Sequence record: MN871446.1
Source of the DNA: Klebsiella phage KpLz-2_45
DNA length: 64,000 bases
Strand: one strand, 5' to 3'
Shown: in pieces, positions 5,972-60,350 of the stretch
Layout of the letters: each line of letters begins with the position of its first letter
Position numbering within the stretch: position 1 is the stretch's first letter
Made by a program: the position numbers and the translations under genes
The notes under the pieces: generated by a model
Databases searched by the model: none
The model's input: only the letters and a program-made list of their open reading frames with translations
What the model was told of the DNA's origin: nothing

Positions 5972-8191
5972 TTAGTCTTGACGACGCAGAGCCAGTACAA
6001 AGCTATCGGATTTAGCATCCTGATAATCTTTGCGGACTTCTAACCAGCTGTTATCGGCGAACCAGATATAGTTCAGGCACGCGATATCGCTACCGGCATT
6101 AAAGTTCATGGCTTTCAGCGCGTTATGCAGTTTAGGTGAGGTTTCTTGGGACACGAAGAAGATTTCACCCGGCTGAGCATCAGCACTGATTCTCAGTTTC
6201 AGGTCGTTAACCAGCATCGGGGCGATAACCATATTGATACGTTTTACCACATAGATGGTACGCGCATCGGTGGTTTCGTTGACACCGGCACCAATAATCC
6301 CTGAACCCAATTTAAACATCTGGAAGTTAGCCAGGTGGAACGAGAACGCGCCAGCCAGTTTCTTCGCAAACTCAGCGCCACGTGCTTTAGTGACGTCATC
6401 CGCCAACGTCGCCAGATCTTCAAAGCTTTCAATGCGCAGACCGCAACCCATTTCCAGACGGAAGATAGAGTTCACCAGTTCGACGATATGGCGTTTCGCA
6501 GCCACTACCAGCGCAACAGGAACACGATCGATGACACGCTTCAGGTTATCGTGGATATCCTGAATATAGCTCAGTTCAATATTGTCATTGAAGTTGAGGC
6601 CCGTCATCTCCAGTTGACGCAGCGTGAACCGTGCTTCTTCCGGCGTAGCGCAAGTGTAAATCGGTTCGTAGGATTCCGCGGCGGTTTGGAACGCATTGAA
6701 GTTGGTGTGCAGGTGACCGTTCTGATCGTTGGTCATTTCTTCGGTACGAGACATTTCCTGCATACGGATATGACCCAGACCGAACCCCTTCACCGTTTCA
6801 TCTGAACGGAGAATATTCTCGAACGAGATTGTTCCCGCGTTCGGGGCTTCAGGAACCACCTTCTGTTCTTCCGGCGGCAGGGCGCTGTTTTCTTCCTTGA
6901 TACTGGCAACCACGGCTTCGTACTCCTGACGGTCCTGGTCACGAAGTTCGCGGTTAGCTTTCACGTTAAAACGTGGGCCGGCGATCGCTTTACGGATCTC
7001 GGCGTTTTTCGGGTGATAACGATTATCGGCTTCTTTTGCGCCGATGACGTTCAGTTCGTGAATTTTACGATCCACTTCTTTTACCTCTTCAGCGGTTAAC
7101 GGTTCAAACGCCATGTAACGATAACCGTCACTGGTGATGTCCCATACAGGGCGAACAGAGTCCACTTCCCATGCGATTGGGCGGTGGTTATTCGCTTCGT
7201 TCGGATGGAGCGGGATAGACATGACCACTTCGTAATCGTCTAATTTGATCAGACCCGATTCAATGTCTTCACGGGTAATAGGACGATTCGCTAAGCGGTT
7301 ACCTTTTGATGAGTAACCCGGTGCAGATTCAGCCGGCGCGGCTTTCTTTTTACTGAATGAAGCGGGGCGAGTGACTTCATGCGGTTCTACTCGCTCGTAC
7401 GCCGGCGCGGCGTTCGCAGTGCGTGGGTCTGGCATTTCGAAATCGTCACGTTCGTCACGATTCACTTCATTCCCATTTGCTTGTTCGCGCATACGGGCGG
7501 TGGCGACATACGGGTTAACACGACGGCGATTGTTACGGGCAGCATTAATATCTACCGCAGGTTCCCGACGAGAGTCGGCACGACCACGAGTAGGGATAGC
7601 GCTTTCGTAACGGCCGGGGCGAGAACCGAAACCACCGGAACTTCGTCCACGATCATCGCGATCTTCGTAACGACCTCTGCGTTCATCACGACCACGGCCT
7701 TCATAACGCCCACGACGCTCTTCTTCGCGTCCACGACCGAAGCCGCCACTGCTACGACCAAAACCACCACGACGGTCGTCGCGTCCACGGTCACCAAAGC
7801 GACGACCACGATCAGCTTCTTCCGCATACTCTTCCAGTGCACGACGCAGTTTATTAGCATTGTCAGCCAAAAACAGCATGTCGTCTTCTGTACGGCGATC
7901 GGGGATATCGACACTACGGTCTTCTTTGATCAGTGCCCCGGCAAAGAATGAGGCGAGTTCAATTGCTCCTTCCCAAAGGTCATCTGGTTCTTTACGGAGG
8001 TCAACTAACATTTCCATGGAGTCGAAAACGAAGTTGATTAAGTTTTCACGGGTCTGACGACTGCGACGAATCGCATCGTCAAGGTATTCGAAGAACGGAT
8101 CGTCACGGGACAGTTCGCTGATGCGTTCATCCAGGAAAGCAGCCAGGTTGCGATCGTTAAAATCCATCTCATTACGACGACGGTTATACAT
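5972..8191 (-). CDS. hypothetical protein, 739 aa, with internal RG/RGG-rich low-complexity segment (aa ~125-200)
   Basis: Long ORF. Segment RGRDDRRGGFGRSSGGFGRGREEERRGRYEGRGRDERRGRYEDRDDRGRSSGGFGSRPGRYE. CGT/GGT codon bias. Confidence 0.8.
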   Translation of the reverse strand: MYNRRRNEMDFNDRNLAAFLDERISELSRDDPFFEYLDDAIRRSRQTRENLINFVFDSMEMLVDLRKEPDDLWEGAIELASFFAGALIKEDRSVDIPDRRTEDDMLFLADNANKLRRALEEYAEEADRGRRFGDRGRDDRRGGFGRSSGGFGRGREEERRGRYEGRGRDERRGRYEDRDDRGRSSGGFGSRPGRYESAIPTRGRADSRREPAVDINAARNNRRRVNPYVATARMREQANGNEVNRDERDDFEMPDPRTANAAPAYERVEPHEVTRPASFSKKKAAPAESAPGYSSKGNRLANRPITREDIESGLIKLDDYEVVMSIPLHPNEANNHRPIAWEVDSVRPVWDITSDGYRYMAFEPLTAEEVKEVDRKIHELNVIGAKEADNRYHPKNAEIRKAIAGPRFNVKANRELRDQDRQEYEAVVASIKEENSALPPEEQKVVPEAPNAGTISFENILRSDETVKGFGLGHIRMQEMSRTEEMTNDQNGHLHTNFNAFQTAAESYEPIYTCATPEEARFTLRQLEMTGLNFNDNIELSYIQDIHDNLKRVIDRVPVALVVAAKRHIVELVNSIFRLEMGCGLRIESFEDLATLADDVTKARGAEFAKKLAGAFSFHLANFQMFKLGSGIIGAGVNETTDARTIYVVKRINMVIAPMLVNDLKLRISADAQPGEIFFVSQETSPKLHNALKAMNFNAGSDIACLNYIWFADNSWLEVRKDYQDAKSDSFVLALRRQD

Positions 8192-24853: not shown

Positions 24854-26113
24854 CTACGCTGGCGCGTTCAGGCGCATCGAAGTTGAGACCGCCTCTGGCG
24901 CAGTAGACTCAACAGAAGCAGAAATATACCGGAGCGAAGCCCTTACTGTTTTAACAACGTAACGGTAGGTTTTAAAACGGTCGCCTTCGATCAGTTTCAC
25001 CGAAGAACGCATTAAAGAACCCAGTCGAGAGATATTAATACTGGTTTGACTTTTCTTGTCTTCCAGAGTCTGAATAATAGCTTTAAACTGTTTTTCTACT
25101 TTATCGTAGCTACCTGAACTTTCGCGGCTGTTTTTTACGATATTGAGTAAATTTACCCCTTCGTCAATAATAATTTTTGCTTTGGCGGCGTTCAACGGTG
25201 CGCCGGAGAAAGTAATTCCACTTTGATATACTTTCACAAGGTTAGGTGAGAGCCCATCGAGCATTTTTATTAATGTATCAACAGCATTAACGAAAGAGTC
25301 GTCCATGCCCATAAAACCTTGACCGTTGATCTTTTTAACTAAAATAGAAGTCACTGCATAACCACCCGGTAATGGGAGGGATGCGACGTCTTGTACTTTT
25401 TCAAAGTTTCTACCGCCGAAGATAGCTTCGTTATGTGCGCGATTAGGGCCCGAAAATGTTTTTGATTCATTAGGTTGAGTCAGCACTCTCGAAATAGGTT
25501 CAGCGACTTTGGCGTAGCTCTGAATGACTGCGGCGGCTTCTTTCGATTCCTGGCCCGTGAAATGATCCTCTGCGTTAATCCATTTTTCAGCGACCGCCAT
25601 CGCGTTCTCGGCCAAGTCGGACAAACCATCGCGAACGTTAACCATCATTTCAAGTACGCCGCGAAGATTTACAAACTTATTCGGGAAGCTTTCATCTAAA
25701 GAACCTTGTACAGCTAACGCTCCTGTCACCGTTGGCAATAACGTAATCTTTTCTGTTTTAAAGTTACGATGCTCTGACAGCAGACCTTTTGCGGCTTCAA
25801 TTTCTTTTTCCGCCTGCTCTACGCCAATCAGATACGTTCTGGCCCAGTCTTTGAAATCACGGAAACGTTCCATGACCCACTCGATGAGGTTTTTGAGTGT
25901 TTCTTTGATTCTACTCGAAATTTTACCGAGTGTGCTATTTTTATCCCCATCGATTGTCACGGATTCGCGGTCGGCTTCGACAGATACTTCTGAACGCTCG
26001 CCCATGAAAATACCCAGAATTTTTTGGGCATCGGTAGGAATCGCTTGACAGGATTCCAAAGAAGCCTTTACTTCGCTGTAAACCGCTAAGTCTTTTAAAA
26101 GTTGTTCGCTCAT
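24854..26113 (-). CDS. paralog-array protein 2 (419 aa; ILGIF motif), candidate inner-body protein
   Basis: Shares the ILNIF/ILGIF N-terminal motif and a C-terminus ending ...NAPA with paralogs 3 and 4. Confidence 0.75.
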   Translation of the reverse strand: MSEQLLKDLAVYSEVKASLESCQAIPTDAQKILGIFMGERSEVSVEADRESVTIDGDKNSTLGKISSRIKETLKNLIEWVMERFRDFKDWARTYLIGVEQAEKEIEAAKGLLSEHRNFKTEKITLLPTVTGALAVQGSLDESFPNKFVNLRGVLEMMVNVRDGLSDLAENAMAVAEKWINAEDHFTGQESKEAAAVIQSYAKVAEPISRVLTQPNESKTFSGPNRAHNEAIFGGRNFEKVQDVASLPLPGGYAVTSILVKKINGQGFMGMDDSFVNAVDTLIKMLDGLSPNLVKVYQSGITFSGAPLNAAKAKIIIDEGVNLLNIVKNSRESSGSYDKVEKQFKAIIQTLEDKKSQTSINISRLGSLMRSSVKLIEGDRFKTYRYVVKTVRASLRYISASVESTAPEAVSTSMRLNAPA

Positions 26114-26130
26114 TTTTTCTACCTTAAGAA

Positions 26131-27618
26131 TTAATTTGGTTTCTGGCTATTTTCGTTTTCGTCTTGCTTCTCACCTTCAAGGGAAGCTTTAGCGTATTTC
26201 AACGCAGCACGCGAAGTGGAACCGAAGAAACTCACTAAGCTACTGGTCACTGAGGATGGCATACTTGCAACGGTAGAAACGATGGAGCGTAACGCTGAGG
26301 AGATACTGCCGCCGCCTTCGCTGGTTTCGTTAATGTTCATGTTAGCGATGTTCTGGCCAGCCTGATCAACGGCGCGATCGACTTGGGACTTCTTACTTCC
26401 CGAGTTCTTCAGTTTTAACATCGCGTTCGCTACCGCCAAGGCACCGTCTGCGATCTTCGCGGCGTCTGTCGGGGAACAGCGTGAGACTTCTTTGTCCTCA
26501 ACCTGGTGGTTACGTGAGTTCCAAAGTTTATTCTCTGCCGACAGATCAACTACGATAACCTTAGAGAACTTATACGCCTTTTCCAGCGCTCTGATTCCTT
26601 CGATCGGATTTTCTGTCGGGTTAACGGTGACCACAACTGCCGCTAATCGCGCGTTACCTAAGAAAGGTTCGGACGCTTCAACAACGGCATTAACAGAATC
26701 GTCGCCTTTGAGTAACACTTCATTAGCATCGCCTGGTAAACGAATGGTGAGTTCACCTGCAATCGCTTCGGACGGATGTTTTACGCTTTCGGCGAGCGTT
26801 TTAAACAATTGATTGAACGACGCTTCGCCGCCCGGCTGGTAGCTACCAATCGCGCTTGCTACCGCCTGTGCGTTACTGTAGGTATCCTCGATGACATTGT
26901 TCAATACCATGTCGGAGATACGACCCAGGCGCATCATTTCATTCGGAACATTAGGCCAGTTACCCTCGATGAGCAGTTTACCTTTCTCAGAGAATTCAAT
27001 GTCACCAGAGCCGGGCCTGGCGTGGGTGACTTCTTCTTTGAGTTGTTCAGCTAAACTCTTAAGTTGTTCAGCGCCGTTAAAGGCGTTTTCAAGCCAGTGA
27101 CCGAACCGACTGCGGGCTTCTTTCAAAAAGGCGGAGAATTTCTGCCACCATTCACGAAGGACTTCTTTAATCCCTTCCAGTGCAACTTTCGATTCATACG
27201 GCGTGATATGCGACGCAGACTCATTGGCGACAAAGGCACGGGCAGTTTGGATACCCATGCTGTTCGAGAAAATATTCAGAATCACAGCGGCTTCGGTAGA
27301 GAGAGATTGCCCTGCATTGATCTCTGGCGCGATGGCGTCGTAAACCGCTTGGTATTTATTCGTGGTTTCAGTCAAAGACGTCAAGCCCATGATGTCGGCA
27401 TCTACCGGATCAAGAGCGTTATCAATTTCGTCGGGTAATTCGCTTTCATTGGAGTCGAAGCCGATGGGACGTTCGTCGAACGATTCGACGGATTGTTTTT
27501 CTGGTTCTACAACGGCGGACTCAATCGAGACTTGTGGACGTCGTGCGAGGACGTTTTTAATCTTGGTCATTTTAAGTATTCCTTTCCCGGGAGAAGGCGT
27601 GTTAGGAAGAAAAGTCAT
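26131..27618 (-). CDS. paralog-array protein 3 (495 aa; VILNIFSNSMG motif), candidate inner-body protein
   Basis: Aligns by eye with 27670..29928 from the ILNIF motif onward. The N-terminal region is acidic. Confidence 0.75.
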   Translation of the reverse strand: MTFLPNTPSPGKGILKMTKIKNVLARRPQVSIESAVVEPEKQSVESFDERPIGFDSNESELPDEIDNALDPVDADIMGLTSLTETTNKYQAVYDAIAPEINAGQSLSTEAAVILNIFSNSMGIQTARAFVANESASHITPYESKVALEGIKEVLREWWQKFSAFLKEARSRFGHWLENAFNGAEQLKSLAEQLKEEVTHARPGSGDIEFSEKGKLLIEGNWPNVPNEMMRLGRISDMVLNNVIEDTYSNAQAVASAIGSYQPGGEASFNQLFKTLAESVKHPSEAIAGELTIRLPGDANEVLLKGDDSVNAVVEASEPFLGNARLAAVVVTVNPTENPIEGIRALEKAYKFSKVIVVDLSAENKLWNSRNHQVEDKEVSRCSPTDAAKIADGALAVANAMLKLKNSGSKKSQVDRAVDQAGQNIANMNINETSEGGGSISSALRSIVSTVASMPSSVTSSLVSFFGSTSRAALKYAKASLEGEKQDENENSQKPN

Positions 27619-54692: not shown

Positions 54693-54751
54693 CTTTTTGC
54701 GCCTTCAATTGATGAAAAAGAAAATGTATGGTTCATAAAATTAACAGCATA

Positions 54752-54775
54752 AAGAGAGGGTCTTTCGACCCTCTC
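54752..54775 (-). terminator. intrinsic terminator (AGAGAGGGTC-GAAA-GACCCTCTCT + TTTATGCTGTTAATTTTATG) ending minus-strand transcription from the tRNA region
   Basis: 10-bp perfect stem followed by a U-rich tract on the minus strand. Confidence 0.6.
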
Positions 54776-55815
54776 TCGTACTGACTAATAGTCAAAAGGA
54801 TCTCAGTGTTTAGCTCATAGATGACTTATCGCACATCATCCTTTTCATGTTAAGGTCGCCACCGAAACATGTTTATTCTCGGCTATACGAGTTAGCTTAA
54901 TTTCCAGATTTTTAATACCCGATCCCTTCTACGTTGGAGAAATGGATCGAATAGGGTGACGCCCCCGGACATTTTTGCCGGCTCCTTGCACCTCTTTCGC
55001 CGGAATCCCCGGCTGAGGTCTATGGTCTATGGCCGCCTATTTTCGCTCTAAGGCGTAGGCCGCCGAAATTGACAGGCGTCATAATTAGTACCCCTCGGCC
55101 GATTCCGCGGCGCGTTTAACCGGCGGGTCGCCGAAGTCTTTGTCTCACGAGAGTTACCAATAAGTTATTGCTTATTGGACAAATCATTCGGATACGATTC
55201 CGAACTCCCTTCCTACCGAGCCTCTACTACCGAGCAGGAGTCGAACCTGCACTCTCTGTAAACAATATCACTTGACTAGAGCAGTATTGTAAAGGTTACG
55301 TGGACTTTAAAAGTGTAGAATGGGTATCAGTTAATTTGTTGCGGCCGCATACCGGTAACTGACTTCTTCTACTAGCGCCACCACTGACTCCGGTGTCTCG
55401 CCTAGTGGCGTTGTGCGACCCATTAACTCGCACTCTCTCTTTTAAGTCCAACTTTGGTTGATAGGTACCGAATCGAACGGCTATCTCAGGCTCCCATGTT
55501 AAGGCGCCCCTCGTATGAGAGGGGGCCTAATGCCCGCGCTTTACCTTTAAGCTAGCCTATCATTGAATAGGTTCCCTAGCACTCAATGAGTATCATCTAC
55601 ACCAGCAGCGCCCGGTGTTTAGCCGAGATGCAATTATGCTTAAATGGGTCGTATTTAACGGCTCATTTATTCGTCGATGATTTACGTAGGGATAACAAGG
55701 AGACATCCCCCTCAGCACGCCGAGGTCAACTTTTTCCTTAGGTCAAGATTAACTCTCCGCAACATTAAGTCGCCTGGTTAACCCCTGCCTTTAGTCTAAG
55801 CAAGATGTCATTATT

Positions 55816-55905
55816 TGGCAGAGAGTGAGAGATTCGAACTCTCGGTACCCTTTCGGATACACTCCCTTAGCAGGGGAGCGACTTAAACCGCTCATCCAAC
55901 TCTCT
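55816..55905 (-). tRNA. tRNA-Ser (anticodon GCT), class II, CCA encoded
   Basis: Folds manually: acceptor AGAGAGT/ACTCTCT, anticodon arm CTCCC-CTGCTAA-GGGAG (same sequence as the E. coli Ser-GCU tRNA arm as I recall it), long variable arm, T-arm GAGAG-TTCGAAT-CTCTC. Confidence 0.85.
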
Positions 55906-55912
55906 ATTAAAA

Positions 55913-55989
55913 TGGCGACTCTTCCAGGACTTGAACCTGGGACCTACAGCTTAACAGGCTGCCGTTCTAACCAACTGAACTAAAGAGTC
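55913..55989 (-). tRNA. tRNA-Asn (anticodon GTT), CCA encoded
   Basis: Acceptor GACTCTT/AAGAGTC, anticodon loop CTGTTAA, T-arm CCAGG-TTCAAGT-CCTGG. Confidence 0.85.
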
Positions 55990-55995
55990 ATTATT

Positions 55996-56070
55996 TGGCG
56001 GTGCTACGGAGAATCGAACTCCGGTCTCCTCCGTGACAGGGAGGTATCCTTTCCGCTAGACGATAGCACC
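55996..56070 (-). tRNA. tRNA-Asp (anticodon GTC), CCA encoded
   Basis: Acceptor GGTGCTA/TAGCACC, anticodon arm CCTCC-CTGTCAC-GGAGG, T-arm CGGAG-TTCGATT-CTCCG. Confidence 0.8.
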
Positions 56071-56081
56071 TTTTGTTTGGT

Positions 56082-56178
56082 TGTTCCCTTCCGGATTTGA
56101 ACCGGCAACCTCCTGCTAAGCAGTGGGCGGCGCAGTGGCCGCCGATGCAGGCGCTCTACCTAGTTGAGCTACGAGAAC
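56082..56178 (-). pseudogene. tRNA-Ala-like gene with 30-nt insertion in the anticodon loop (disrupted or intron-containing tRNA); no encoded CCA
   Basis: Minus-strand read GTTCTCG-TA-GCTCAACTAGGTAGAGC-G-CCTGC[ATCGGCGGCCACTGCGCCGCCCACTGCTTA]GCAGG-AGGTT-GCCGG-TTCAAAT-CCGGA-AGGGAAC-A. The backbone resembles enterobacterial tRNA-Ala (..AGAGCGCCTGC..GCAGGAGGT..). The insert contains a perfect hairpin GGCGGC-CACTGC-GCCGCC. Confidence 0.5.
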
Positions 56179-56186
56179 ATTGAATC

Positions 56187-56262
56187 TGGAGCAAGCAGCG
56201 AGGTTCGAACTCGCGACCTATGACTTGGAAGGACATCGCTCTACCAACTGAGCTATACTTGC
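56187..56262 (-). tRNA. tRNA-Gly (anticodon TCC), CCA encoded
   Basis: Acceptor GCAAGTA/TGCTTGC, anticodon loop CTTCCAA, T-arm GCGAG-TTCGAAC-CTCGC. Confidence 0.85.
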
Positions 56263-56340
56263 TTTGAATTTCGTTCATAAGATGATGAAATTACTTAATT
56301 TTTGATCCGCGCACCAGTATTCTCGTTAACCAACGGGGAA

Positions 56341-56796
56341 TTATATCTTTGGTTTCTTATTAGCCTTTTTACAGGCAGCTCTGTAACCGACCGTATCAAA
56401 AATACCATTGATGGAATGTTTAATGATTATACCCTGAGAAAGTCCGGTAAATAACGCGGCATCTCTAATCGTGTCATAGATCCACCCATCAATAACCCAA
56501 CAAGTTCTCCGTTTCACGTCGGCGTAATAATGAACTTCTTTACTATCATGATAATTATCACGATCCGTACCAATAGACAAATGCTCAGGATTACAGCAAC
56601 GGGTGTTATGGCAAGAATGTCTTACTACTTTACCAATTGGCACTGGCCCATAAACTGTAGTGAAGACAAATTTATGAGTTGTCCAATATTTACCGTTCCG
56701 TGTAAACTGGCCGTAACCAGCGCTATTGCAAGATTTATTCCAATTCCAGCAACCGGTTACTTTATCTACCGTTGTATTTTCTTTAATAAATTCCAT
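56341..56796 (-). CDS. HNH homing endonuclease, 151 aa
   Basis: Motif GCWNWNKSCNSAGYGQF...HKFVF...GPVPIGKVVRHSCHNTRCCNPEHLSIGT, the canonical C-W-x-W...G-Y-G...H-x-C-x-N...C-x-N-P-x-H-L HNH signature. It sits between two groups of tRNA genes. Confidence 0.75.
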   Translation of the reverse strand: MEFIKENTTVDKVTGCWNWNKSCNSAGYGQFTRNGKYWTTHKFVFTTVYGPVPIGKVVRHSCHNTRCCNPEHLSIGTDRDNYHDSKEVHYYADVKRRTCWVIDGWIYDTIRDAALFTGLSQGIIIKHSINGIFDTVGYRAACKKANKKPKI

Positions 56797-56894
56797 GTGT
56801 TTATAATCTCTTTCTGTTAATTGTTTATCAACAGAGTGATATATATTTTAAGGAATTTTGGTTGCTCTATCCTGCTGAGCTAAGAGGACGTAGA

Positions 56895-56979
56895 TGGTGC
56901 CCAGGGCGGGGCTCGAACCCGCACGCGATAAAGCGAGGGATTTTAAATCCCTTGTGTCTGCCGATTTCACCACCTGGGC
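56895..56979 (-). tRNA. tRNA-Leu (anticodon TAA), class II, CCA encoded
   Basis: Acceptor GCCCAGG/CCTGGGC, anticodon arm AGGGA-TTTAAAA-TCCCT, T-arm GCGGG-TTCGAGC-CCCGC. Closely resembles E. coli Leu-UAA tRNA. Confidence 0.85.
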
Positions 56980-56984
56980 AAATA

Positions 56985-57060
56985 TGGTGGGTCCAGCAGG
57001 TTTTGAACCTGCGACCAAGCGATTATGAGTCGCCTGCTCTAACCACTGAGCTATGGACCC
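56985..57060 (-). tRNA. tRNA with CAT anticodon; anticodon arm and body match enterobacterial tRNA-Ile2 (ileX, lysidine) rather than elongator/initiator Met
   Basis: GGGTCCA-TA-GCTCAGTGGTTAGAGC-A-GGCGA-CTCATAA-TCGCT-TGGTC-GCAGG-TTCAAAA-CCTGC-TGGACCC-A-CCA. The GGCGACTCATAATCGCTTGGTC block matches E. coli ileX as I recall it. Confidence 0.8.
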
Positions 57061-59797: not shown

Positions 59798-59826
59798 GGA
59801 GAGAGGAGGGAATTCCCTCCTCTCTC
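59798..59826 (-). terminator. intrinsic terminator (GGAGAGAGGAGGG-AATT-CCCTCCTCTCTC, then CTATGCTTTTTTACGG on minus strand)
   Basis: Perfect palindromic hairpin centred on GAATTC, with a T6 run on the minus strand. It closes a short minus-strand transcription unit that contains the permuted tRNA-like element. Confidence 0.6.
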
Positions 59827-59992
59827 GATTAATTCATTTATCAAAAAGTGATCTCTTTGAAAAAGAAACTTTTGTGGTAAGAAGGGCGGAGGTAAGGATA
59901 TAACCATCCCCAACACCGCCCATAGCCATTCAGCTATAAACAGAATTTAGCGCGACCTATCTAAGAATAAGATTGGAAGTTTTATTTTATAA

Positions 59993-60087
59993 TCTAGTGC
60001 TCTACCGGCTGAGCTATCTGCCTCCAAGAAACACTCTGTGAATGTGTCCAGGTAGGCAGAGCGGAATTCGAATCCGCGACCTCTAGA
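59993..60087 (-). ncRNA. circularly permuted tRNA-like element: tRNA 3' half (anticodon-stem 3' strand + variable loop AGGTC + T-arm + acceptor 3' strand + A + CC) located upstream of the matching 5' half (acceptor, D-arm, anticodon-stem 5' strand), 27-nt spacer
   Basis: Minus-strand read TCTAG-AGGTC-GCGGA-TTCGAAT-TCCGC-TCTGCCT-A-CC | TGGACACATTCACAGAGTGTTTCTTGG | AGGCAGA-TA-GCTC-AGCCGGTA-GAGC-A-CTAGA. Acceptor strands (AGGCAGA/TCTGCCT) and anticodon-stem strands (CTAGA/TCTAG) are perfectly complementary but in permuted order. Confidence 0.45.
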
Positions 60088-60235
60088 ATTCTTTCCGTAA
60101 AAGAAAGAAAGTTCAGTCCGCTATTTTACTGTTTACTCTTTATCTTTAAGCGTGTGAGGCGATAAGATAAAGTTAACACTAACCATCTGGGTCGCATTAT
60201 GGGTGCATTGATGACTGCGTCTACCAATTCCGCCA

Positions 60236-60276
60236 TTCTCCCATAGTTTGGTGGGAGAAGAAAGAGTCGAACTTCC
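60236..60276 (-). ncRNA. tRNA 3'-end-like minihelix (T-arm GGAAG-TTCGACT-CTTTC + 7-nt acceptor strand + A + CCA) whose acceptor strand pairs with an immediately adjacent downstream segment
   Basis: Minus-strand read GGAAGTTCGACTCTTTC-TTCTCCC-A-CCA-AACTA-TGGGAGAA. No D or anticodon arm is detectable. Confidence 0.3.
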
Positions 60277-60309
60277 AGTGGGGTCATCACACCTGCAACA
60301 CGGACTAAC

Positions 60310-60350
60310 AATAAAGATAAGGTTGGCCTCAATCTTTATTATCAATGGGC
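60310..60350 (-). terminator. intrinsic terminator after gene 60379..61146 (AATAAAGAT-13 nt loop-ATCTTTATT)
   Basis: 9-bp A/T-rich stem whose 3' side is U-rich on the minus strand. Confidence 0.45.

Follow-up and report, generated by a model that had tools for sequence, protein, structure and literature searches.

RNAs that keep the shape of a tRNA without decoding are known from several systems. In mascRNA (MALAT1), the tRNA-miRNA TMERs of MHV68 and engineered tRNA scaffolds, this shape serves processing or stability, and in the scaffolds a cargo hairpin replaces the anticodon arm. Why phages have tRNA genes is still debated, and recent work points to an escape from tRNA-cleaving defence. 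The bacterial YrlA RNAs are tRNA mimics encoded near rsr and rtcB, and in M. smegmatis such an RNA is cut by RNase P and receives CCA (PMC4201824). Phage T4 encodes the small RNAs C and D (species 1 and 2) in its tRNA cluster, beside a homing endonuclease gene. Irregular tRNAs of the allo-tRNA type occur in phage tRNA clusters, and a regulatory RNA role has been proposed for them (PMC5389517), whereas the "enigmatic introns" of the Lak megaphages are conserved insertions in the anticodon region, which make the genes overlong and cause standard prediction to fail (PMC6784885). Here we analyse a stretch of 64,000 nucleotides from Klebsiella phage KpLz-2_45 (MN871446.1), referred to as the window. 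It contains element A (56078-56179, minus strand), a tRNA-shaped gene in which a 30-nt insert replaces the anticodon loop, and element B (55455-55562, minus strand), a paralogue of the same build. Comparison of sequences gives A, together with B, about an even chance of being a functional tRNA-derived non-coding RNA, i.e. a non-decoding tRNA mimic.

By analogy, A and B are functionally nearest to the tRNA-mimic RNAs (YrlA, the T4 RNAs C and D, and scaffolds of the mascRNA type) and are members of none of these groups. Like A and B, the YrlA or bacterial Y RNAs (RF02553) are non-decoding and have a true elbow of D-arm and T-arm as well as an acceptor-like stem; they occur in RtcB-carrying genomes, including those of phages, and the window has a YrlA-like module at a distance of 4 kb from A. 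However, YrlA is circularly permuted, its ends exit via the stem on the anticodon side and its acceptor stem is closed by a loop, whereas A and B have the topology of a normal tRNA, in that their acceptor ends are free and it is the enlarged anticodon arm that is closed. Over the tRNA genes, the YrlA model produced weak matches of 22.5 and 18.1 bits (gathering score 69), one of which spans the 5' end of A. The T4 RNAs share their setting with A and B, and rnaC has a tRNA-like T-arm, but they form no cloverleaf and have no sequence similarity to A or B. The Rfam tRNA model left rnaC and rnaD unmatched, the best match being to tRNA-Sec with 17.5 bits (E=0.9). Engineered scaffolds have exactly the topology of A and B, but mascRNA, the TMERs and the scaffolds are eukaryotic or artificial and not homologous to either element. 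With the Rfam mascRNA-menRNA model, the only match was a sub-threshold one to the neighbouring tRNA-Asp.

The nearest published phenomenon is, in our comparison, that of the Lak megaphage "tRNA introns". In the Lak genes, the anticodon and the tRNA type are recognisable after removal of the insert, and one insert is tRNA-sized (PMC6784885), whereas no conserved anticodon is recoverable in A; moreover, these Prevotella megaphages are unrelated, and the two cases were compared by description only. Finally, tRNA-His (G-1), bacterial tRNA-Sec (8/5) and the (8/4) allo-tRNAs resemble A and B in their possible 8-bp acceptor stem only (PMC5389517). The anticodon loop of these tRNAs has the normal length of 7 nt, and they usually also carry a G-1:C73 pair (His) or a long variable arm (allo-tRNA, Sec), whereas A and B have a 5-nt variable loop, U-1:A73 and no 7-nt anticodon loop.

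The phage belongs to the group of the Klebsiella jumbo phage ΦKp24 (vB_KpM_FBKp24, Maaswegvirus), and over the alignable parts the window is ~97-99% identical to phages of this group. With genomes of ~300 kb, they have genes for chimallin-like proteins, tubulin and a multisubunit RNA polymerase. The GenBank record MJ359 labels both A and B as "tRNA-OTHER", and the records of the other relatives leave both unannotated. A and B go unmentioned in the ΦKp24 genome paper, where the tRNA count is 9, and our literature searches found no publication that describes either.

The tRNA fold of A and its paralogue B

Read 5' to 3' (window positions 56179-56078), A consists of U-1, the 7-nt acceptor 5' strand GUUCUCG, the dinucleotide UA, a D-arm (GCUC, AACUAGGUA, GAGC), a single G, the anticodon stem strand CCUGC, the 30-nt insert, the second stem strand GCAGG, the variable loop AGGUU, a T-arm (GCCGG, UUCAAAU, CCGGA), the acceptor 3' strand AGGGAAC, A73 and then ACCA. 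The Rfam tRNA model (RF00005, gathering score 29 bits) matches it with 38.9 bits at 56082-56178 (minus strand), from the first to the last model position, with 28 nt unaligned within the anticodon loop; the E-value is 5e-6 in a 3-kb search and 1e-4 for the whole 64-kb window. ARAGORN did not call A in its default mode. With introns allowed, it called both A and B and drew A with an 8-bp acceptor stem and an encoded CCA. Our own covariance model, R1, scores A at 129.6 bits. The bases of the tertiary core (U8, A14, G18G19, A21 and U54-U55-C56...A58 of the T-loop) are all there in both elements, and so is the 54:58 reverse-Hoogsteen pair.

The first-pass annotation had described A as a tRNA-Ala-like gene whose 7-nt anticodon loop gave way to 30 nt with a perfect GC hairpin, and much of that description agrees with what we read. 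The anticodon stem is CCUGC/GCAGG, the variable loop is AGGUU, and the 30 nt between the stem strands are AUCGGCGGCCACUGCGCCGCCCACUGCUUA (56117-56146, minus strand), made up of AUC, GGCGGC, CACUGC, GCCGCC and CACUGCUUA. The hairpin (56126-56143, minus strand) has 6 bp, GGCGGC/GCCGCC, and the 6-nt loop CACUGC. This loop sequence occurs again in the 3' tail, the insert as a whole being composed of two 12-nt direct repeats, and the 19-nt hairpin core occurs a single time in the window (0 expected by chance). The acceptor stem does contain the G7.A66 mismatch, with a second mismatch, G49.A65, next to it in our reading, and G3:U70, the acceptor pair that serves as an identity element for alanyl-tRNA synthetase (AlaRS), is indeed absent: the pair is U3:A70 in every variant of A and B.

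The likeness to tRNA-Ala extends to the 3' strand of the D-stem, G26, the anticodon stem and the variable loop, i.e. to the stretch AGAGCGCCUGC...GCAGGAGGU, which is identical in E. coli alaT upon direct comparison; nothing else matches alaT, and a BLAST search of A against E. coli genomes gave no match at E<=1. The statement of that annotation that no CCA is encoded is correct for the canonical register only: ACCA is encoded one base further 3' (...GGGAAC-A-ACCA). The base preceding G1, U-1, can pair with A73, which would result in an 8-bp acceptor stem followed by a discriminator A and CCA. An 8-bp acceptor stem is also found in tRNA-His and tRNA-Sec. Both the pairable U-1:A73 and the ACCA displaced by one base are present in every variant of A and B, whereas all six canonical tRNAs of the cluster have N73-CCA in the normal register according to ARAGORN. 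Transfer-messenger RNA was also considered; ARAGORN found none, A lacks G3:U70 and its insert contains no reading frame.

Element B was delineated with the Rfam tRNA model, ARAGORN with introns allowed and the predicted fold. The Rfam match is full-length (34.4 bits at 55459-55561, minus strand) and leaves 36 nt unaligned in the anticodon loop. The insert of B comprises 40 nt (55492-55531, minus strand): AUUA, a 9-bp bulged hairpin and UUAACAUGGGA. B has U-1:A73, a C7.A66 mismatch, a 4-bp T-stem and an ACCA displaced by one base, which would amount to an 8/4 arrangement of acceptor and T-stem; A of the related phage Centimanus would be 8/5 and fully paired. In common with A, B has an identical D-arm, an insert that starts with A and a pyrimidine, a 7:66 mismatch with A66, U-1:A73 and the tail CAACCA, and in both inserts a hairpin is followed by a single-stranded 3' tail of 9-11 nt. 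The stems of the two elements differ by double compensatory changes in 4/7 acceptor pairs, 2/5 anticodon stem pairs and 1/4 D-stem pairs. Because they share these odd features while their stems differ in a compensatory manner, A and B are, as far as sequence can tell, one family. When the window and 300 kb of a related genome were searched with a covariance model built from A, the matches were A, B and ordinary tRNAs and nothing else.

Conservation of the tRNA body among related phages

The region is covered by 18 related loci, the more divergent ones of which were found in Logan assemblies via the neighbouring 295-aa protein. None of the 18 loci lacks B, which comes in 7 sequence variants. 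Thirteen loci contain A, as 5 full-length variants and 1 deletion variant. In four loci (L107-109 and L113), A is missing and an HNH endonuclease gene occupies its position; in the short contig L072, A was not seen and the region directly upstream of B contains an HNH-like reading frame. The flanking protein genes of the divergent relatives are 66-85% identical to the window at the DNA level, and the neighbour protein is 46-67% identical, whereas identity in the same relatives is 97-100% for the A and B bodies (tRNA-Gly, 99%). B is 97% identical in ΦKp24 and Centimanus, although its flanks are unalignable there.

A closer look at where A varies shows that the changes are distributed very unevenly. 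In the most divergent relative, L099, the body has 0/72 changes and the insert 8/30 (Fisher p=2.7e-5). Over all variants, 8 variable columns fall into the insert and 6 into the T-arm and 7:66 region, while the acceptor stem, the D-arm and the anticodon stem have 0. The changes in the T-arm region are of a compensatory kind. In Centimanus, G7.A66 has become G-C and G49.A65 has become A-U; in L106, the same two mismatched pairs are G-C and G.U. The T-loop of A changes from UUCAAAU to AUCAUAC in Centimanus and to UUCAUAC in L106, and that of B from UUCGAUU to AUCGUAU in L106, so that the tertiary 54:58 pair was converted from U:A to A:U twice independently, in A of Centimanus and in B of L106. 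All changes in the anticodon stem of B are interchanges of G.U and G-C.

The first-pass annotation had left open that A is a pseudogene and had proposed a comparison with homologous phages as a check. With the 18 loci at hand, no random decay of the A body is seen, and the pseudogene reading is rejected because the body is conserved against a changing insert and the 54:58 pair was swapped twice. The contrast between body and insert within one 102-nt gene is also the strongest argument that selection, and not recent transfer, explains the conservation. Taken together, the comparison of relatives supports the tRNA fold, its conservation and the lack of a conserved anticodon.

The insert of A is less constrained. 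The hairpin and its CACUGC loop are kept in 5/6 variants, of which one has CACUGU and one an A.C mismatch in the stem. The 5' edge of the insert is AUC, ACC or GCC, its 3' tail is CACUGCUUA, AACUGCUUA or AAACGCCUA, and its 3' edge reads CUGCUUA or ACGCCUA. In L106, one 12-nt repeat unit is deleted between the two CACUGC copies, which leaves an 18-nt loop and abolishes the hairpin. Because L106 loses the hairpin yet keeps the body intact and even better paired, it is the body of A that, by this comparison, bears the selected function, and the insert mainly needs to be present. The CACUGC repeat of loop and tail was considered as a conserved feature of A and discarded, as L099 does not conserve it and the deletion of L106 occurred at this site. 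The pairing of the insert with the T-stem, which appears in the predicted minimum-energy fold of A, was likewise discarded after a comparison of the variants by hand, since it is lost in Centimanus.

In B, the hairpin stem is invariant in the 7 variants and so is the tail CAUGGGA. At four of the five variable positions of its insert, the changes leave the hairpin fold unaffected, and three of the four, in loop and tail, also strengthen an alternative helix, CUC(U/C)CAU/AUGGGAG, which is the predicted minimum-energy fold of the L099 variant. This modelling suggests that the anticodon arm of B could be two-state. B as a whole folds robustly, with a cloverleaf-plus-hairpin centroid, a z-score of -2.27 and pair probabilities of ~0.8-0.99.

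Possible function of the pair and rival readings

To decode, a tRNA needs an anticodon loop of 7 nt in which U33 precedes the anticodon triplet and position 37 is a purine, and A lacks this combination. Its loop comprises 30 nt (18 nt in L106) and that of B 40 nt. Every possible excision from A leaves a pyrimidine at position 37, none yields U33 together with a purine 37, and no anticodon triplet is conserved at either edge of the insert among the relatives. Since a long structured insert replaces the anticodon loop, A and B almost certainly cannot decode.

The insert could nevertheless be an intron, as the first-pass annotation had suggested for a small, non-canonical one. An endonuclease would then cut the transcripts and the phage RtcB would join the halves into a decoding tRNA. 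Ligases of the RtcB family splice tRNAs in archaea and animals, and both RtcB and Tpt1 are encoded by the related ΦKp24 genome. When introns are allowed, ARAGORN guesses the anticodon GCU for A and UGG (or UAG) for B. Removal of 33 nt from B would give AUUGGGA (UGG) or AUUAGGA (UAG), both with U33 and G37, and the former loop is close to that of E. coli tRNA-Pro(UGG). The A insert ends in the 7 nt CUGCUUA, one position away from the loop CUGCUAA of tRNA-Ser(GCU) of the same phage. Permuted tRNA-like modules lie nearby, and introns in Lak megaphage tRNA genes have been reported (PMC6784885). Other features speak against this reading. The pre-tRNAs of archaea and eukaryotes (EndA, RtcB) resemble A and B in having a helix-bearing insertion in the anticodon loop and an RtcB-family ligase in the genome, but they are cut at a bulge-helix-bulge motif, i.e. 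a 3-nt bulge, a 4-bp helix and a 3-nt bulge at the exon-intron junctions. The motif is absent from A and B, whose hairpins of 6-9 bp are flanked by internal loops of 3 x 9 nt (A) and 4 x 11 nt (B), and the host is bacterial. No splicing endonuclease was recognised among the ΦKp24 annotations, most genes being hypothetical and not all of them scanned. The insert is short and its edges vary: in L099, the 3' edge ACGCCUA has no U33 and a different triplet, and the 12-nt deletion of L106 leaves its 18-nt loop. All excisions from A give the pyrimidine 37, the body of A is class I and so not a serine acceptor, and elongator tRNAs typically have neither an extra base in front of CCA nor a 7:66 mismatch. 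Because there is neither a bulge-helix-bulge motif nor a conserved anticodon triplet, splicing of A or B into a decoding tRNA appears unlikely. If it did occur, it would be a case of protein-dependent tRNA splicing in a bacterial virus. A group I intron was rejected as well. Those found in bacterial tRNA genes are self-splicing, ~200 nt or more in length and have a conserved P1-P9 core, whereas the inserts comprise only 30-40 nt and no Rfam intron family matches them.

In another explanation, the tRNA shape would be a mere punctuation mark, a signal for RNase P or 3'-end cleavage in a long precursor, and B would set the 5' end of the conserved ~1 kb non-coding RNA that follows it, in the manner in which mascRNA sets the 3' end of MALAT1. 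Such a role needs no decoding and would fit both the universal presence of B, while canonical tRNAs come and go, and its constant position directly upstream of 54750-55454, a non-coding and partly conserved (76-98%) stretch with a terminator at its end and at least one compensatory change. However, any canonical tRNA would do for this purpose. The 8-bp stem, the displaced CCA and the structured insert common to A and B would be left unexplained, as would the invariant hairpin stem and tail of B, and A lies between two ordinary tRNAs where an extra signal is needless. We therefore consider this reading quite unlikely. Still less can be said for the idea that both are disabled tRNA genes hitch-hiking in a frequently exchanged cluster. 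A has two mismatches at the junction of acceptor and T-stem, no anticodon, a variable insert and a deletion variant, it has been lost in some lineages, and the cluster is a mosaic with homing endonuclease genes. Nevertheless, decay explains neither the uneven distribution of changes in the L099 gene nor the repair of the mismatches in Centimanus and L106, the double swap of the 54:58 pair, the persistence of B amid unalignable flanks or the same unusual architecture in both paralogues, and we regard it as improbable. The insert might also act at the level of DNA, by blocking the target site of a homing endonuclease (immunity) or as a small mobile hairpin, the RNA being irrelevant. HNH genes do occur at varied places in the cluster, including exactly the position of A in L107 and L113, and the insert of A does consist of two direct repeats. 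A mobile hairpin was rejected because no second copy was found in the window or in 300 kb of ΦKp24; plasmid searches gave no similar sequence, and neither the conservation of the tRNA body nor the compensatory changes would be accounted for. A DNA-level role is thus highly improbable. An RNA anti-CRISPR that mimics a CRISPR repeat was discarded, since plasmid searches with either insert returned no matches resembling a repeat array.

Hence, a tRNA-derived non-coding RNA is the reading best supported, mainly because the alternatives were eliminated and also because of the pattern of conservation. Among its options the first-pass annotation had listed a tRNA-derived regulatory RNA; it is the tRNA-derived part of this option that the comparison supports. 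If A and B are such tRNA mimics, A would be transcribed on the minus strand within a polycistronic tRNA precursor, from which RNase P should free its 5' end. Following the rules of RNase P, the cut would probably fall before U-1, because U-1 can pair with A73 and CCA lies one base further out, and this would create the 8-bp acceptor stem. The encoded ACCA would supply a tRNA-type 3' end without CCA addition. The D-arm and T-arm would form a normal tRNA elbow, which the comparison of relatives supports, and the anticodon stem of the tRNA-Ala type would close an insert of 18-40 nt, usually with a GC-rich hairpin and without a usable anticodon. As A lacks G3:U70, it should escape charging by AlaRS. 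Selection would act on the tRNA body and not on the anticodon, and the most likely role, although conjectural, would be to engage proteins that read the tRNA body or the CCA end outside decoding. The pair may, for instance, serve as a decoy or competitor for host defence enzymes that target tRNAs, or as a partner or cofactor of the phage RNA-repair set (RtcB, Tpt1 and YrlA-like RNAs).

Several observations weigh against this interpretation. At least two lineages (L107-109 and L113) show that A can be dispensed with, and so can several canonical tRNAs. In the thermodynamic model, the anticodon stem of A has a pairing probability of only ~0.1, its cloverleaf has an energy of -36.1 kcal/mol compared to -36.7 kcal/mol for an alternative fold, and the z-score of the whole molecule is -0.9. 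Covariation within the family is weak, with 77/500 (B) and 45-180/500 (A) of the shuffles reaching the observed score, because the diversity of the sequences is so low. The genomes are mosaic and the cluster contains homing endonucleases, and recent exchange could inflate the apparent conservation. Finally, no physical link of A or B to RtcB or to any defence system was found, and the Ro60/TROVE (Rsr) partner was not found among the ΦKp24 annotations.

A bolder version would include the two permuted tRNA-like modules described below. A, B and these modules would be substrates of an RtcB cut-and-rejoin pathway, perhaps triggered by host anticodon nucleases, or they would be "anticodon-armoured" tRNA decoys that bind and neutralise tRNA-targeting defence enzymes of the host. 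We consider this conceivable but not likely. If the cut-and-rejoin pathway were real, it would represent protein-only tRNA splicing or re-arrangement in a bacteriophage, and if the RNAs were decoys or repair cofactors, they would constitute a new type of RNA-based counter-defence. More generally, a conserved pair of RNAs that keep the tRNA body and the CCA end while giving up the anticodon would point to a tRNA-shaped function beyond decoding. Standard annotation misses A and B or calls them "tRNA-OTHER", and the tRNA counts of these therapeutic Klebsiella phages need correction.

The tRNA cluster, neighbouring RNAs and wider searches

The window has six canonical tRNA genes (Ser, Asn, Asp, Gly, Leu and Met/Ile2; 55816-57060, minus strand), identified with ARAGORN and Rfam, and A sits 7-8 nt from tRNA-Gly and tRNA-Asp. 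The gene with a CAU anticodon (56985-57060, minus strand) is called tRNA-Met by most pipelines and tRNA-Ile2 (lysidine type) in the MJ359 record. Among the relatives, canonical tRNAs of the cluster have been both gained and lost (Arg, Tyr, Gln, Gly, Asp, Ser and even Met and Asn). A free-standing HNH endonuclease gene (56341-56796, minus strand; Pfam HNH_3, E=1.8e-11) fills the place that tRNA-Arg, Tyr and Gln have in relatives. Elsewhere, HNH genes are found at differing sites of the cluster (L003 1465-1926, L107 12465-12926 and 14183-14638, L113 13242-13697), and in L107 a truncated 5' fragment of a tRNA adjoins such a gene. Divergent alleles replace whole tRNA genes of the cluster, with 12/67 differences in tRNA-Met and 9/76 in tRNA-Asn, and other genes are lost. 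Judged from its gene content, the tRNA cluster is a recombination mosaic.

Some 4 kb upstream of A lies a small-RNA unit (59830-60340, minus strand), bounded by a promoter, which is annotated in ΦKp24, and a strong terminator at ~59800-59830. It contains two circularly permuted tRNA-like modules (59966-60093 and ~60222-60300), is 93-94% conserved in relatives and is absent from L099. The first module (59966-60093, minus strand) resembles YrlA or Y RNAs and consists of a T-arm, the acceptor 3' strand, ACC(A), a spacer hairpin, the acceptor 5' strand and a D-arm; in a search of 641 nt, the Rfam YrlA model matches it with E=1.2e-6 and 37.6 bits, a score that falls short of the gathering score. 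The "tRNA-Sup-TTA" of ΦKp24 is part of this module, and both that published suppressor tRNA and the "tRNA-Stop(tta)" that ARAGORN calls in relatives are probably mis-calls on it. In the second module, the helix between leader and trailer shows a double change from U.G to G.U between the window and L102.

The RNA-repair genes of ΦKp24 encode an RtcB RNA ligase (Pfam, 402 bits) and a Tpt1/KptA RNA 2'-phosphotransferase (145 bits) and are located at 24955-26199 and 41106-41669 of L046 (record positions 174955-176199 and 191106-191669). ΦKp24 also has macro-domain proteins. For the 563-aa gene directly downstream of its rtcB, searches of Pfam, PHROG and PDB gave no match, and the homologues of this gene likewise lack Pfam domains. 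The phage is thus predicted to hold several tRNA-shaped non-decoding RNAs plus RNA-repair enzymes.

The non-coding stretch 54750-55454 (minus strand) occupies ~700 nt between B and a terminator at ~54750-54785. It is GC-rich and highly structured, includes T-arm-like pieces, e.g. at 55225-55250 (GCAGGTTCGACTCCTGC) and 55410-55435, and is matched by no Rfam family. Among relatives it is modular, with a ~170-nt segment that is present or absent, and parts of it are 92-98% conserved; its compensatory change is found in L099, where CGCCAC...GUGGCG has become UGCCAC...GUGGCA.

Pattern scans for A and B covered IMG/VR, JGI metagenomes and GTDB genomes and yielded two further copies only. In IMG/VR, the matches were ΦKp24 itself and one 10.5-kb contig; the JGI scan added one more copy of B, and the other matches in metagenomes and genome collections were due to chance or to tandem tRNA genes. 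Scans of IMG/VR with neighbouring proteins returned only the same clade or host-like TAXI genes. The Erwinia jumbo phages Huxley and Kwan have syntenic tRNA clusters with odd tRNA-like genes, none of which is of the A or B type. As far as searched, A and B are restricted to their clade. In Huxley (L049), a distant relative, an unannotated non-canonical tRNA-like gene at 7177-7248 (Rfam, 38.9 bits) has the loop CCCAUAC without U33, and a "tRNA-Ile(AAU)" of 94-97 nt at 7250-7341 has a long extra arm (31.4 bits). In Kwan, as in the window, a TAXI-family gene adjoins the tRNA cluster.

Also of note are unrelated bacterial tRNA-like genes in Streptomyces sp. NPDC091377 (L081 6107-6203), Sinimarinibacterium sp. 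(L092 6384-6485) and a metagenome (L063 964-1076), all with insertions of 23-28 nt in or next to the anticodon loop. These three genes suggest that tRNA-shaped genes with enlarged anticodon loops may be commoner than annotation shows. The Streptomyces gene has a tRNA-Ala-like D-arm and the variable loop AGGUU.

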